Positions 10,838 to 63,785 are shown, numbered from the stretch's first letter. The stretch: 64,000 nucleotides of DNA from Octopus vulgaris (GCA_951406725.2 OX597815.1:13392001-13456000); one strand, 5' to 3'. The notes: generated by a model from the letters alone, not told the origin. Program-made: numbers and translations.

Positions 10838-11446
<609 letters not shown>

Positions 11447-12855: not shown

Positions 12856-13071
12856 GAAGGTTTGAAAATGCAGTTTTAAAAGATGTCTATTTACTTGACC
12901 GGTTTCACTTTTTAGGAAAATATTGTCAAAAGTAACATGTAAAAGCTTTGTTGTGTTAGGTACTGGTTGTCGCAAAATATTACAATACGTTCATTGATAA
13001 TAATAAGAACATCTTAAAGACAGTTTACAAGGAAAAATGTTGGGAAAATATAAGAATGTTTAACTTTTTTA

Positions 13072-24999: not shown

Positions 25000-25191
25000 A
25001 ATCCACACATGAAAACACAACAACGCGAGGACCTGGAACAAGTATAGTATTATTGAACGCTAAGGAAGGAAGGAAAGAAGGAGGGTTTAACGTTTCAAGA
25101 GGAGCTCTTCGTCAGAAACATAGGAAAAAGAAAGATCCAAAGAAGGGAAGAGGAGGAAAAAATCACCAACGGTACACACGCGGTCACATTT
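24997..25191 (-). mobile_element. Family A element (HHR at 25085-25119)
   Basis: Same sequence family; lies between (TA)n and (TG)n; stem II partly decayed. Confidence 0.8.
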
Positions 25192-46939: not shown

Positions 46940-47013
<74 letters not shown>

Positions 47014-47127
47014 TCCTTTTATTATTAATTAAGAAATTTTAGGGTAGCAAAAAGAATTCTAGAAAAATTCTCCGCTACCAGCGGTCACGTGAGATAGTAA
47101 AAGTAGTCAATAGACTATGTAATATAC

Positions 47128-47468
47128 ATTCAAACATATAAGAGATGGCAATAATAGGACATCTGACTCACTTGAAAGAGCAGTTAAACTCCAAACCACT
47201 AATAGTCGTAATTCTGAAATGGAAGGACAAATAAAAACGTTTACCCTTTCCTTTCTGGACTATGCATAGTTTCAGCAATCTTTCGTTAATAAAATAAAAT
47301 TTTATTTTATTTACAAAAGATTGCCGAAACTATGCATAGTCCAGAAAGGAAAGGGTAAACGTTTTTATTTCTCCTTCCATTTCAGAATTACGACTATTAG
47401 TGGTTTGGAGTTTAACTGCTCTTTCTAGTGCGTCAGATCTCCTATTAAGGCCATCTCTTATATGTTTG

Positions 47469-47471
<3 letters not shown>
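47128..47471. repeat. Loopless ~344-bp palindrome (family G) carrying the 3' half of an HHR
   Basis: Axis at about 47299/47300; right arm has GAAAC-TATGCATA-GTC at about 47326-47341. Confidence 0.85.
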
Positions 47472-47529
<58 letters not shown>

Positions 47530-47534
<5 letters not shown>

Positions 47535-47728
47535 ACTGTGACCGCGTGTATACCGTTGGATCTTTCTTTGGATCTTTCCTTTTCCTATATTTCTGACGAA
47601 GAGCTCCGCTCGAAACATTAGACCCTCCTTCTTCTCTTCCTTTCTGAGCGTCCAATAATACTATATATGTTCCACGTCCTCGCGTTGTTGTGTTTTCTCT
47701 TTGTGTTTTCATGTTTGGATTAAACTTT
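47530..47728 (+). mobile_element. Family A element (HHR at 47589-47623)
   Basis: CTGACGAAGAGCTCCGCTCGAAAC; (TA)n on both sides. Confidence 0.8.
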
Positions 47729-47739
47729 ATATATATATA

Positions 47740-48220
47740 TATAACATAAGGAGGATCAGCCATCTGAATGTGGCTAGGGTCAGGGCGGGATGATGGGGGT
47801 GTTACTGATGCATTTAGCCCCAGGCGAACATCAACGTCACCAGAATAGCTGACACCATCTCGGTGTCCTTGCCAGCTTGCAAAGGGAGATCAGCCTCCCA
47901 GAAGATACGGATACTACACGCGGACCGGTTTCGAGGTTATTGCCTCTTGTCAACGTATGGTAAGCACCGCTCTTCGTTGAGGGACTCTCTCTACAGGCTG
48001 GATATATAGATTTGAGTCAATAACCTCGAAACCGGTCCGTGTGTAGTATCCGTATCTTCGGGAAGGCTGATCTCCCTTTGCAAGCTGGCAAGGACACCGA
48101 GATGGTGTCAGCTATTCTGGTGACGTTGATGTTCGCCTGGGGCTAAATGCATCAGTAACACCCCCATCATCCCGCCCTGACCCTAGCCACATTCAGATGG
48201 CTGATCCTCCTTATGTTATA
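47740..48220. mobile_element. Family F fold-back element (~203-bp arms, ~75-nt loop)
   Basis: 47740-47942 is a near-perfect reverse complement of 48018-48220. Confidence 0.9.
47918..47958 (-). ncRNA. Hammerhead ribozyme (U3-A8 core), family F
   Basis: ATACG-TTGACAA-GAGG caataa CCTC-GAAAC cg GTC-CGCGT on the minus strand; GUC triplet; one mismatch in stem I. Confidence 0.72.
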
Positions 48221-48370
48221 GAGCAGTTACTGTTTATATCTCGCTCAGAGATTTGTTATTGTTATATATATATATATAATATTAATTAGAGACAAAACCA
48301 CTATTTTGCAAAACAAACAAGGAAAGACTTAATCAATACATAAACATTTTTAATATAAAGAAATAAACCG

Positions 48371-48413
48371 CCACTACAATCGTTTCATGTCTTCAATGAC
48401 ATTCGTCAGGTGG
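48371..48413 (-). ncRNA. Antisense copy of the family D hammerhead (left arm of fold-back)
   Basis: Exact reverse complement of 48447-48489. Confidence 0.83.
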
Positions 48414-48446
48414 ATTTTCGATAAAACAGATTAGGAGATCGAAAAT

Positions 48447-48489
48447 CCACCTGACGAATGTCATTGAAGACATGAAACGATTGTAGTGG
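48447..48489 (+). ncRNA. Minimal type I hammerhead ribozyme (family D)
   Basis: CCAC-CTGACGA-ATGTC attgaa GACAT-GAAAC gatt GTA-GTGG; canonical core with a GUA cleavage triplet. Confidence 0.85.
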
Positions 48490-48668
48490 CGGTTTATTTC
48501 TTTATATTAAAATTTTTTATGTATTGATTAAGTCTTTCCTTGTTTGTTTTGCAAAATAGTGGTTTTGTCTCGAATTAATATTATATAATATTTTACTATA
48601 AAATTGGATTTAATCCTAAATCTGATTTTTTCCCTGTAAATTTGGATTTATTCCCTAATATTTATTAT

Positions 48669-48730
<62 letters not shown>

Positions 48731-48732
<2 letters not shown>

Positions 48733-50626
48733 CGGACAAAGAAGCGGACAAAGGGAGTGCTGTGGTCCTTATGGACACGGAATTTTATAAACACCTTGTG
48801 TTTTCCATGCTTAACAATAACATTTTCTATGAGGTTAATAACAACTACAAACAGCAAAAAACAATCAGAAACCTCACCACACTCATACGCCAACACGGTC
48901 AGGGACTCACAGAAAAAGAAAGGGATTATATCACCATTTTCAAATGCAAGCCCAGCCTCTTTTATGGCCTCCCTAAAATCCATAAAAACAAATACATCAC
49001 CGAAGCCTGCAAATTCTCCACTGACATCCCCATCAACATCAAAGCACCGGAGGACCTAAAACTAAGGCCCATCGTGGCTGGTACCTCCTGTGAAACACAC
49101 CGCCTCAGTAACTTCCTAGACATCCTTTTGAAACCTTTCCTTACCCACATCAAAAGTTTCATTAGGGATGATCTGGACATGCTCAAACACCTCCCGAAAA
49201 CAGTTAACGAGGAGGCACTCCTGGTATCCTTTGATGTCATCAACCTCTACACCAACATCCCACATGAGTATGGTATAGAGGCAATTGACTTCTGGCTAGA
49301 AAAACACCCAGAGACATTCCCTGACCGCATCAACAAGTCTTTTATTACAGAATCTCTCAAGTTCATTCTGACAAACAATTTTTTCTCTTCGACGACACAC
49401 ACTACCGTCAAAAATGTGGTATTGCGATGGGTACCAAGGCTGCACCAGTCCTTGCGAACCTCATAATGGGTTACTTCGAACTGTCACTCTATGAAATATC
49501 AAGCCAGAAATTTGGACATGTTTTCCACACCTACCTAATGGAAAACTGGAAAAGGTATTTAAATGATTGTTTCATCATATGGAAAGAACCTTATGAAAAA
49601 CTCCTGGAATTCAAAACCATACTAAACAACATACATCCCAACATCCAATTCACTATGGAATTAAGCAAACATCATCTCCCATTCCTTGATCTCCTAATTA
49701 TAAAAACACCTAAGAACCAAATCATAACAGAAATCTACCACAAACCTACAGACTCACAACAATACCTCCTCTTTAGTTCATGCCACCCAAAACACACCAA
49801 GACAAATATCCCTTTCAATTTAGCTAAAAGGGTATGCACCATTGTCTCGGATACAAAAACACGAGAAATATGCCTTCAAGACCTCAAAAAAACACTACTC
49901 CAACGTCAATATCCCTCCACCCTTATAGAGTATGGAATAAAACGCGCCAAAGAACTAGATAACACTACACTGAAAACCACCCAACCTAACACCACACACA
50001 ACCTCAAAATACTTCCATACATTTCCACCCACAACCCCAAAAATATCGAAGCATACACCACAATCATACAAAACCTCAGTCTACTGTCAACAGACCCAAA
50101 AATGAAAAACATTATAAATACACACAAAATCCTCAAATGTAAAAGGCAACACAAATCTTTAAAAAAACTCTTGACACATGCCAAACTTCACACACCACAT
50201 CCACCCCCAGCAGTAAAAAAATGTGCACGCTCAAACTGTGGTACCTGCCCCTTTCTACTTGAAGGCTCTGAATTTACCTTCAAACAAGGTACGAAGTTTA
50301 AAATCAAGACTAACTTCTCCTGCTCCTCCGAGAACCTTATCTACGTTCTCACATGCGCTGGTTGCCAACATAATTATGTTGGACAAACGAGTCTCCCGTT
50401 ACGTAAACGAGTAACGGTGCATAAAGAACAAATAAATCTCCCGGAATACCGACAAATTCCACTGAGTGACCACTTAGACTCATGTGCTAAAGACTTAAAC
50501 CCCAAATTCTATATATTCCCCTTCTACCAATGTAAAGACGGGATCACCACACGGGAGAGAATTAACAAGGAGAATCTCTTTATTGAAAAATTCCAAACAC
50601 AACTTAATATGCAAACTCCTCGTTGA
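48731..50626 (+). pseudogene. PLE reverse transcriptase + GIY-YIG endonuclease, disrupted
   Basis: Motifs ADKGSAVV, FYGLPKIHK, LRPIVAG, SFDVINLYTNIP, (GIA)MGTKAAP, PFLDL, YHKPT; Cys linker CARSNCGTC; NLIYVLTCAGC..YVGQT..LRKR..H. Frameshift at a T-run near 49380 joins ORFs 48642..49466 and 49427..50626. Catalytic YxDD reads YLND. Confidence 0.93.
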
Positions 50627-51239
50627 TCAAACTTCCTTTTTCTACCTCACTCTTCATGGATGGACTAACACAAATATATAAAGATACCATGCATTCATCA
50701 CTTCAAGCTAAAACTTATATTCTTTAAATATCATTTTTACTATTGTTGTTATTACTATCATTTTTATTATAAATGATATGACAATCTGAAATGCAATCGT
50801 CTATGCAGATTTATATAATTAGAAAATAATATAAATAAAATGTTAAAATCTGAAAGTTAAGTTAACAAACAATTATATAATAAAGATAACGCAAATGAAG
50901 CTAAAATGATAATTCTATAATTTGGGTTTTACCTCAAAAGAGTTGTCTCCCCTTACTCACAACACAGGAACTGAAGAACCACAATTACTACTACTTCCTG
51001 TTCTGCCAACATTCTGAATTAAACCAAACAACACATGCTCTTAATCCCATTGGATCCTAATACCTCAAGGTAATTTTTTCGTGAACAATCATCAAACTCA
51101 AGATACACAACGAACTCACAATGTATCGGAGTACTTATTTTTTAATTTTTGTACATTCTTATTATTATTCTTTTGTAAAAAACAATGCAATTTTCTCTTT
51201 TTCCCCTTTCTAATTTTTAAAAACACTTTTTAACATAAA

Positions 51240-51280
51240 TATTCTTGACAAGTCATACAATGACGAAAACCGGTTGAATA
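51240..51280 (+). ncRNA. Minimal type I hammerhead ribozyme (U3-A8 core) at PLE 3' end
   Basis: TATTC-TTGACAA-GTCA tacaa TGAC-GAAA-ACCGGTT-GAATA: stem I TATTC/GAATA, stem II GTCA/TGAC, palindromic stem III. Confidence 0.75.
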
Positions 51281-51370
51281 AATATATATTTATATATTTT
51301 ATCAATTTCTCATTTTATTAAAATTTTCTTTCATTTGAGCATTCTGCATTTAAAAAAAACTTTTTCCTTG

Positions 51371-51431
<61 letters not shown>

Positions 51432-52227
51432 CTGTATGTATACATATATATATATATGTGTGTGTGTGTGTTTGTGTGTGTACGTATGCACGTATGTATA
51501 TATTGTGTGTGTATGTGTATGTGTGTGTGTTTGTGTGAGCATACGAATATTAATGTTTATAAAGAGTCCTATCTTCTGGACACGTATAAATATTTTCATG
51601 GGATATACACTGATGAATTATTAGGACAAACTAGGGCATTGCCATCCGTCGAAACGAGATCAGTTGCAAAGAGTTACTGATTCCATACTAGATTGTATCG
51701 CAAGGAATTTCAGTGGATGATGAAGTTGATTATATAACTTTGAGAAGACATTTATTGCATTTAAGGATCGCGTACCGAAATTTATTGCTTAATAGGTGGA
51801 CACATTGATGCAAACGTGCGCTTGGTATAAGTGATTAAAACTATCAGAAGTCCAATAATTCATAAAATCAAACAATTAACCAATTTTAATTTATGTAGTT
51901 GAGGCATTTCTGTTATTAATTTGATTAATATTATTAATTAAACATTATTATTTTTTTTAATTCACTCACTTCGATGTTATAGCATTTAAAACGGCGGCAC
52001 CTACATCTTTCTTTCTAAGATATACTAGTCGTTGACAAAAGTTATGTATGTACCAGTGAATTTGCGCAGGAGTTGCTGTGTGGTAAGTAGCTTGCTAACC
52101 AACCACATGGTTCCGGGTTCAGTCCCACTGCGGGGCATCTTGGGCAAGTGTCTTCTGCTATGGCCCCGGGTCGACCAATGCCTTGTGAGTGGATTTGGTA
52201 GACGGAAACTGAAAGAAGCCTGTTGTA

Positions 52228-52292
<65 letters not shown>

Positions 52293-52346
52293 GGAGCTTC
52301 TACAGGACTAGAACTGTTTCATTCAAGAGAAATCTTCAGGAAGCTC
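52293..52346 (-). ncRNA. Hammerhead ribozyme, family E
   Basis: GAGCTTC-CTGAAGA-tTTC tctt GAAt-GAAACAG ttctagtc CTGTA-GAAGCTC; 7-bp stem I, 4-bp stem III. Confidence 0.75.
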
Positions 52347-52347
52347 A

Positions 52348-52401
52348 GGAGCTTCCTGAAGATTTCTCTTGAATGAAACAGTTCTAGTCCTGTAGAACTC
52401 C
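52348..52401 (+). ncRNA. Hammerhead ribozyme, family E (opposite arm)
   Basis: Mirror copy with a 1-nt deletion in the 3' strand of stem I. Confidence 0.68.
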
Positions 52402-52882
52402 TTCTATATAATAAATTAATTTTACTCTGCTATGTATTGAGTACCTTATTTACTGTGGTTAACCCCGAATCAACCCGGGACCTACATATATATATATATA
52501 TATATATACGTGTCTGTGTTTGTGTGTCAGTGTGTGTCCCCCTAGCATTGCTTGACAACCGATGCTGGTGTGTTTACGTCCCCGTCACCTAGCGGTTCGG
52601 CAAAAGAGACCGATAGAATAAGTACTGGGCTTACAAAGAATAAGTCCCGGGGTCGATTTGCTCGACTAAAAGCGGTGCTCCAGCATGGCCGCAAGTCAAA
52701 TGACTGAAACAAGAAAAAGAGTAAAGAGTAAAAGAGTAAAGAGTATGGACATACAAATGAATACGAGATCATTACTCTTCTCTAAAGAATAGATGAGTCA
52801 AAGAATGCACAAATTTAAGCCTGGGTTTTCTAGAAATATGTGAAGTAATACATCTTTTACAGTTACATATCATAATAAACAT

Positions 52883-55160: not shown

Positions 55161-56231
55161 TCTATGTAAGAATACCTCTTTGTAAGAATACCGCTATGTA
55201 AGAATACATCTTTGTAAGAATATCTCTATGTAAGAATACCTCTTTGTAAGAATACCTCTTTGTAAGAATACCTCTATATAAGAATACCTCTATGTAAGAA
55301 TACATCTATGTAAGAATACCTCTATGTAAGAATACCTCTTTGTAAGAATACCTCTTTGTAAGAATATTTCTATGTAAGAATACCTCTTTGTAAGAATACC
55401 TCTATGTAAGAATACCTCTTTGTAAGAATATCTCTATGTAAGAATACCTCTATGTAAGAATACCTCTATATAAGAATACCTCTATGTAAGAATACCGCTA
55501 TGTAAGAATACCTCTTTGTAAGAATACCTCTATGTAAGAATACCTCTTTGTAAGAATACCTCTATGTAAGAATACCTCTTTGTAAGAATACCTCTATGTA
55601 AGAATACCTCTATGTAAGAATACCTCTATGTAAGAATACCTCTTTGTAAGAATACCTCTATGTAAGAATACCTCTTTGTAAGAATACCTCTATGTAAGAA
55701 TACCTCTATGTAAGAATACCTCTATGTAAGAATACCTCTTTGTAAGAATACCCCTTTGTAAGAATACCTCTATGTAAGAATACCTCTCTTTGTAAGAATA
55801 CCTCTATGTAAGAATACCTCTATGTAAGAATACCTCTATGTAAGAATACCTCTATGTAAGAATACCTCTATGTAAGAATACCTCTATGTAAGAATACCTC
55901 TATGTAAGAATACCTCTATGTAAGAATACCTCTATGTAAGAATACCTCTTTGTAAGAATACCTCTATGTAAGAATACCTCTATGTAAGAATACCTCTATG
56001 TAAGAATACCTCTATGTAAGAATACCTCTTTGTAAGAATACCTCTTTGTAAGAATACCTCTTTGTAAGAATACCTCTTTGTAAGAATACCTCTACGTAAG
56101 AATACCTCTTTGTAAGAATACCTCTATGTAAGAATACCTCTATGTAAGAATACCTCTTTTTAAGAATACCTCTATGTAAGAATACCTCTTTGTAAGAATA
56201 CCTCTATGTAAGAATACCTCTATGTAAGAAT
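55161..56231. repeat. 16-bp minisatellite (GTAAGAATACCTCTWT)n, about 67 copies
   Basis: Direct tandem units, no spacers. Confidence 0.97.
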
Positions 56232-62397: not shown

Positions 62398-62650
62398 TAA
62401 AATAATAAATGTTAGGGAATAAATCCAAATTTACAGGGAAAAAAATCAGATTTAGGATTAAATCCAATTTTATAGTAAAATATTATAAAATATTATTAGA
62501 GACAAAACCACTATTTTGCAAAACAAACAAGGAAAGACTTAATCAATACATAAAATTTTAATAAATAGTCAAAAAAACCGCCACTACAATTGTTTCTTAT
62601 CTTGATCGACAATCTTCAGGTGGACTTCCAATAAGTCAGTTTCAAATTAT
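62398..62650 (-). mobile_element. Family D HHR-bearing short element
   Basis: Reverse complement matches about 48440-48672; (TA)n on both sides. Confidence 0.75.
62581..62623 (-). ncRNA. Hammerhead ribozyme, diverged family D copy
   Basis: CCAC-CTGAAGA-TTGTC gatcaa GATAA-GAAAC aatt GTA-GTGG on the minus strand. Confidence 0.82.
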
Positions 62651-63235: not shown

Positions 63236-63785
63236 TTCAGTAGTTTTATTTTTATAGCGTGCTTTCACTTCACTACCGAGCGCAGCTCTGTGTGCCTTGG
63301 GTATGTGCTGTGATTTGTTGTGATGCTCTGATGGTTATTGTATGGAAAGTGTTCTGCGTAGGATGTGTGCAGTGCCTAGTAGTGCAATTTTCTGTATGTT
63401 ATATGTGTTTGTAAGTCCTGGTGTTTTTGTTATGTATTTGTCTGAATATTTTTTTATCATGTCTAATGCACCTACTATGATAGGAATTGTTTCTGTTTTT
63501 AGATTCCACATTCTGGTTACCTCTATTTCCAGGTCTTTGTATTTTGAGAGTTTCTCCATTTCTTTTAGAAACACGTTGTCATCTGCCGGTATTGATACAT
63601 CAATTAGAAAGCATTTTTTTCTTCATGATCTCTGACAACTATATCTGGTCTGTTGGCCTTAATTTCTCTATCTGTGTGTATCGGCATACCCCAGAGTATG
63701 GTTGCTTTCTCGTTTTCTGTGACCTTTTCTGGTGTGTGCCTATGCCATCTTTTTTCTGTTGTTATTCCATAATGTTATTCCATAA
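63236..63785 (-). mobile_element. R4/Dong-clade 3' fragment, second copy
   Basis: HYGITTEKRWHRHTPEKV..ILWGMPIHTDREIKANRPDIVV..IDVSIP..KYKDL..ILRRTLSIQ*; same 3' UTR; inside (TTA)n. Confidence 0.87.

Follow-up and report, generated by a model that had tools for sequence, protein, structure and literature searches.

Pieces of five families that carry hammerhead ribozyme (HHR) motifs lie side by side in one (TA)n region of the Octopus vulgaris genome, and very probably they represent five separate Penelope-type insertions into it: modules A and D as termini of Penelope-like elements (PLEs), modules G and F as retrozyme-like units, and one broken PLE. The stack itself is ordinary and its adjacency is at chance level. 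For the way in which G and F move, we lean by a small measure to the explanation that they are invertebrate retrozymes with a circular RNA that a dimer of a PLE protein copies, with the two strands primed at different fixed sites on the RNA and with an asymmetry between two 3' ends, T1 and T2, as the record of this process. The window is the whole stretch of DNA that was analysed, 64,000 nt in length (GCA_951406725.2 OX597815.1:13392001-13456000).

The five modules are split by (TA)n spacers and each has a whole or half type I HHR motif. To the right of the left-flanking (TA)n (46943-47014), module G (47024-47471) is a fold-back of which the arms are 95% identical over 172 nt. Its left arm is an inverted, 5'-truncated unit on the minus strand (47024-47299) that runs beyond end T1 (47128) to the tail end T2 (about 47024) and holds a half HHR at 47251-47273, and its right arm on the plus strand (47300-47471) extends from the 3' half of an HHR (47326-47348) up to T1. 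A (TA)n spacer (47472-47530) is followed on the plus strand by module A (47531-47728, minimal HHR at 47590-47622), the last about 200 nt of a PLE that is Neptune/Nematis-type by its motifs. Module F (47744-48262) is again a fold-back, with arms 98% identical over 207 nt. The minus-strand arm (47744-48013) carries a whole HHR of the U3-A8 variant (47917-47959) and stops at T1; the plus-strand arm (48014-48262) carries a half HHR (48018-48043) and passes T1 (48216) to reach the tail end T2 (48262). The same arrangement is found in module D (48279-48668, arm identity 98% over 150 nt), which has a whole HHR on both arms: the minus-strand arm (48279-48422, HHR 48371-48413) stops at T1, and the plus-strand arm (48430-48668, HHR 48447-48489), a pseudo-LTR (pLTR) of a putative Hydra-type PLE in its short 5' form, has T1 at 48581 and the tail end T2 at 48668. 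After a further (TA)n spacer (48672-48731) comes the long PLE, also on the plus strand, with a 5'-truncated ORF in two frames that comprises RT, a CX4CxxC linker and GIY-YIG (48732-50626), and a 3' UTR or pLTR (50627-51371) with a U3-A8 HHR at 51240-51280. The right-flanking (TA)n occupies 51372-51457. An earlier note on this DNA had described four modules and a PLE separated by (TA)n, each with a whole or half HHR; the coordinates and spacers were reproduced, and the motif was found in G, A, F, D and the PLE. The HHR of the PLE, which had been put about 90 nt short of the terminal (TA)n, ends 91 nt before it.

Other repeats were observed elsewhere in the window. A fold-back family H lies between (TA)n tracts 0.9 kb to the right of the stack (52290-52484), and a descriptor scan detected no HHR in it. 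A 432-nt repeat is present in two inverted copies (10944-11375 and 63238-63668) that are 97% identical and lie between (AAT)n tracts, and a 16-nt minisatellite of 67 copies occupies 55161-56231.

Type I core boxes and stems I-III in type I order are whole in D, F, A and the PLE. In all 32 matches the PLE motif has one A more, GAAAA in place of GAAA, and its stems are perfect; in the window copy of A position 16.2 is altered and the helix III palindrome is broken. G has the 3' half of the HHR alone on each arm because the pivot of the fold-back sits in the stem II loop; whole HHRs are found in other G copies. An HHR descriptor gave 27 matches (15 strong) in an 800-kb genome sample (eight 100-kb blocks, 0.03% of 2,800 Mb), against 2-10 matches (0-5 strong) in three dinucleotide shuffles, so the motifs exceed chance; the matches are spread across many unrelated families of which the stems differ yet pair. 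The hammerhead search proposed in the earlier note gave matches with this descriptor but not with Rfam, which had no gathering matches in five loci; in the window no hammerhead appeared among 150 of 249 Rfam matches listed, and the miRNA matches reflect hairpins and (TA)n. Minimal HHRs of PLEs were detected with relaxed descriptors in the published work (PMC4209133). For the preferential conservation of core bases across copies, also raised in that note, a tally found the cores mostly intact, but those of A show decay, with CCGA in 9 of 49 copies and a changed position 16.2 in 8 of 49. Selection on the HHR core is not expected in inserted copies.

At least 15 further HHR families occur in the 800 kb (L171-L250), several of them with a long stem II and a palindromic helix III. 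Further HHRs in the window, all on the minus strand, belong to one more U3-A8 family (12897-12929), to an older subfamily of D in which stem II is changed (62585-62619), and to two copies of A (337-363 and 25089-25115).

When the motif alone is folded as RNA, D, the PLE and other copies of F and G form the predicted stems I and II, and helix III forms as a monomer in G only. When the whole D and F fold-backs are folded, every HHR pairing falls to a probability of 0.0. The HHRs in fold-back copies are predicted to be locked in long hairpins or are only halves, and no ribozyme activity is thus predicted for the stack as an array. If read through by transcription, the stack would rather form hairpins of 150-207 bp.

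The long PLE is the broken member of the stack. The window copy has a frameshift near 49.37 kb and YLND where intact copies read YLDD; it is 96% identical to an intact copy over 2.6 kb, and its 3' end stops at T1, without a tail. Elsewhere in the genome, the 3' end of a copy of this family lies either at T1 or about 47 nt beyond it, at T2. In intact copies a 753-aa RT-GIY-YIG frame is preceded by an ORF of 367 aa, and a copy of the 3' end is present on the 5' side. The family is young and abundant, the best-scoring 150 matches being 97-100% identical in the endonuclease region. In nearly all of the 17 copies inspected (L151-L169) a conserved KIINLS...GLKFTPTP stretch lies out of the RT frame, behind the separate 367-aa ORF; what separates the frames may be a break that the copies have in common, programmed frameshifting or an intron. 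The CX4CxxC linker and a CCHH motif fit Neptune/Nematis as described in PMC8557442, and by motifs alone both the long PLE and the parent of A would be Neptune/Nematis-type.

For module A the 3' end alone was found, with one fixed 3' end. Walking upstream from it, a CA-rich 3' UTR of about 1.5 kb is followed by an RT/GIY-YIG ORF, and two independent loci are colinear over 3.1 kb (82%) from the ORF through the CA-rich UTR to A. Because the ORF stands upstream of A in two loci, A is a PLE 3' end. A sister family, A2, likewise sits behind another ORF. A linked RT and GIY-YIG ORF, as in EN+ PLEs, is present for the long element, A and D, with a GIY-YIG Pfam score slightly under the curated cut-off, and the long element and D also have a pLTR on both sides of the ORF with an HHR inside it and a tail.

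The D HHR has 312 exact matches in the genome. Two same-strand matches at a distance of 2.1 kb flank an RT ORF, which gives a D-ORF-D arrangement at locus L331; of five further loci examined, two (L341, L342) have D immediately before the start of the ORF and a third has it upstream in inverted orientation. The D-linked ORFs are about 821-840 aa long (a peptide search gave frames of 781-852 aa) and carry DKT, KWK (RWK-like), CxCX5C and CxxC/CxH motifs and no CCHH. Marks of Hydra-clade PLEs are listed in section 11 of PMC8557442, and it is by comparison of the ORF motifs with this published list that the PLE of which D is the pLTR is assigned to the Hydra type. Most young D copies, that of the window included, belong to a short form of which the 5' end is fixed, about 45 nt ahead of the HHR (26 of 30 rows), and differs from the upstream sequence of the autonomous element. 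The short form is possibly a SINE-like pLTR derivative from one master locus. Fold-backs make up 20 of 21 short-D insertions (L301-L330).

G and F are of a different kind. In real copies the units are 453 nt (G) and 358 nt (F) long and stand head-to-tail, and the HHR patterns have 149 and 108 exact matches. For F, all 12 same-strand neighbour spacings below 5 kb equal 356-361 nt (100 of the 108 matches listed), with up to three HHRs in a row; G tandems are spaced 453-465 nt. The longest stop-free frame in a doubled G or F unit is 72 aa. Long G and F copies run on into another unit in the loci examined, and in full-length copies the HHR is reached again directly, within 100-150 nt of the tail end. 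Tandem units are also formed by older relatives that resemble G (70-79% identical). Head-to-tail units in the 150-450-bp range (G, at 453 nt, at its edge), a type I HHR and no ORF are the marks of non-LTR retrozymes, and G and F are classified from their sequence as units of this type. The earlier note had proposed to look for module copies that extend into an RT/GIY-YIG ORF: such copies exist for A and D, but for G and F no continuation into an RT or ORF was found in the best 30 loci of each or in the 100 matches listed for each. RT neighbours of G or F copies (L003, L004/L157, L170, L045, L048) were considered as parents and rejected as separate insertions or targets. Inspection by eye of the inverted arms of F and G showed no accumulation of 5' truncations at the predicted cut site. 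The 3' end lies away from (TA)n in 12 of 40 F copies, and F copies outside (TA)n (L039, L041, L056) have the same short AT-rich words on both flanks, resembling target-site duplications.

G and F could instead be plain pLTRs of autonomous PLEs as well, with ORF-bearing copies rare or lost and the tandems produced by template re-use. A rare ORF-bearing parent may exist beyond the best 30 loci of each and the first 100 exact matches that were covered; D appeared to be ORF-less in its first 30 loci, yet turned out to be a pLTR. The F HHR is of the same type (U3-A8, ACCGGU helix III) as that at the 3' end of the long PLE, and a 2026 preprint derives retrozymes from pLTRs. This explanation is less easily reconciled with the return from tail end to HHR in full-length copies, with listed same-strand F spacings that without exception equal one unit, and with the tandem structure of the older G-like relatives, and we consider it unlikely.

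Retrozyme-like G and F units nevertheless share an insertion footprint with the PLEs. In G, F, D and the long PLE alike the 3' end is fixed at two positions, T1 and T2, which lie about 100 nt apart in G, 46 nt in F and 87 nt in D. Inverted HHR pairs are all arranged minus then plus, with the 3' ends outward (39 of 39: D 18, F 14 and G 7, among the first 100 matches listed for each). One arm ends at T1 and the other at T2 in 36 of 38 fold-backs (D 19/20, F 12/13, G 5/5). The D set, in which paired rows served to resolve two insertions, was selected by pattern and is unbiased; the queries that selected the G and F sets stopped at T1, so that in these the second arm alone is unbiased. An independent choice of end by each arm would give the T1/T2 combination in at most half of the cases, for which the unbiased D set has p about 2e-5. 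One autonomous fold-back pair (L145/L146) ends T2/T2, as an exception to the rule. PLEs are known in print for a tail at one end, for inverted truncated copies and for (TA)n bias (PMC8557442), and a PLE protein has been shown to use two RT start sites on uncleaved RNA in the extension of both strands (PMC11167929). Since G and F carry a PLE footprint, they offer independent support for the claim of the preprint that animal retrozymes use PLE enzymes.

In view of the above, a mechanism can be considered in which the PLE RT-endonuclease would cut both strands of a (TA)n tract and prime reverse transcription on either side of the cut, at T1 of the RNA on one side and at T2 on the other. Joining of two incomplete cDNAs would then produce a fold-back. 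G and F could be copied in trans from circular or multimeric RNA, which is suggested by copies that read through the predicted cut site and exceed one unit. Each insertion would leave (TA)n on both sides as a new target, by which stacks would build up passively.

The 800-kb sample contains 614 (TA)n tracts of at least 6 units, and 44 of 71 sampled modules adjoin (TA)n, compared with 11% of random intervals. A neighbouring HHR module was found at 19 of 220 TA-abutting sides from 160 other insertions of the five families and at 79 of 1228 sides of random tracts (p=0.24). The null uses a 20-family library and 0.8 Mb of the 2,800 Mb, without three library entries (66-159 matches each) that carry other repeats; with these entries it is 131/1228, and leaving out their rows lowers the focal count from 21 to 19. 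The neighbour rate is 1.37-fold above the null, and mild hotspot behaviour is therefore possible. A rough extrapolation gives about 4-14 stacks of five expected by chance per genome.

The earlier note had also interpreted the stack as a candidate ribozyme-based non-autonomous system upstream of a Penelope element. That the stack is one composite non-autonomous element processed by ribozymes, or an array of functional ribozymes tied to the PLE, has in its favour the adjacency alone, five modules in a row being rare at about 1 in 10^4-10^5 modules. Among the 160 other insertions, however, the order of the window is absent and the neighbours are of mixed families; an F-D, D-PLE or G-A link in the same order and orientation occurs in none of them. 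The modules also face different ways and differ in age, the identity to another copy being 100% for the D arm, 97% for F and 96% for G, and the HHR stems have no pairing probability in whole fold-backs, with G reduced to halves and A mutated. A system is unsupported as a unit, given no links among the modules or to the PLE, no recurring order, chance-level adjacency and HHRs predicted to be mostly unable to fold; this reading is largely refuted and we regard it as highly improbable. The other proposal of that note, by which remnants of pLTRs or retrozyme-like passengers from several PLE families enter (TA)n again and again, is correct, with A and D as PLE termini and G and F as retrozyme-like units. 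An assembly artefact that joined separate loci at (TA)n, to which one might be led because every junction is (TA)n and public contigs do not bridge the junctions, is equally implausible in view of the short tracts (15-72 nt) within a 216-Mb contig, the natural ends of each module, and the occurrence of two-module neighbours elsewhere at the expected rate.

The stack as such matters little, as elements that target microsatellites produce such arrays in a 2.8-Gb genome; the families are of moderate importance. Published work has inferred the enzyme responsible for the movement of animal retrozymes from co-occurrence and homology, to which G and F contribute a footprint in common with PLEs of the same genome. 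The T1/T2 rule is a countable constraint on the origin of PLE tails and inverted repeats, a question named as open in PMC8557442. Both questions can be tested with the young intact ORFs and the short templates: if the proposed mechanism is correct, the intact Hydra-type ORF with its 300-nt short D RNA would be a minimal system for the formation of inverted pLTRs, and F or G together with a PLE protein that targets (TA)n would be one for the enzyme that moves animal retrozymes. A literature search gave no published description of these families; they may be listed in Repbase, in Dfam or in the supplementary data of PMC8557442 or of the preprint.

All the structural features are in print for PLEs: opposite-strand HHR pairs, the U3-A8 core, the tail, the inverted 5' copy and the (TA)n bias. 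Compared with the minimal HHRs of PLEs as described by Cervera and de la Pena (2014, PMC4209133), the motifs are similar in the short palindromic helix III, the extra nucleotide after A9, the U3-A8 variant, the opposite-strand HHR pairs 100-700 bp apart and the many families per genome. G differs from that description by a 4-bp helix III and a long stem II, with a predicted monomer fold, and the long PLE by the extra A in its core (all 32 matches). The D-linked ORF motifs, the canonical HHR and the (TA)n targets resemble those of Hydra-clade PLEs in the account of Craig et al. (2021, PMC8557442), whereas here most D copies are of the short form, which has a separate fixed 5' end and nearly always occurs as a fold-back. 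The long PLE agrees with the Neptune/Nematis-type elements of the same account in its C-terminal GIY-YIG with CCHH, the CX2-5CxxC linker and the 5' pLTR, and, as far as the descriptions in PMC8557442 and PMC11167929 of Neptune/Nematis and the Poseidon PAc mechanism go, in the tail, the inverted truncated copies and the two RT start sites; it differs by the upstream 367-aa ORF and the shared frame break before RT.

Animal non-LTR retrozymes are given a range of 150-450 bp, those of mussel 350-390 bp, by Cervera and de la Pena (2020, PMC7229834). G and F resemble these metazoan retrozymes in their head-to-tail units, which lack an ORF and carry a single type I HHR; F with 358 nt lies inside the mussel range and G with 453 nt at the upper edge of the overall range. 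Unlike the retrozymes described there, G and F form short arrays (1-3 units) that are dispersed and often inverted with PLE tails, F uses the U3-A8 core, and both are known here from DNA alone. The 2026 preprint reaches the same conclusion that retrozymes use PLE machinery; whereas its argument is built on co-occurrence and pLTR homology, mainly in vertebrates, G and F add two fixed ends and an inverted arm.
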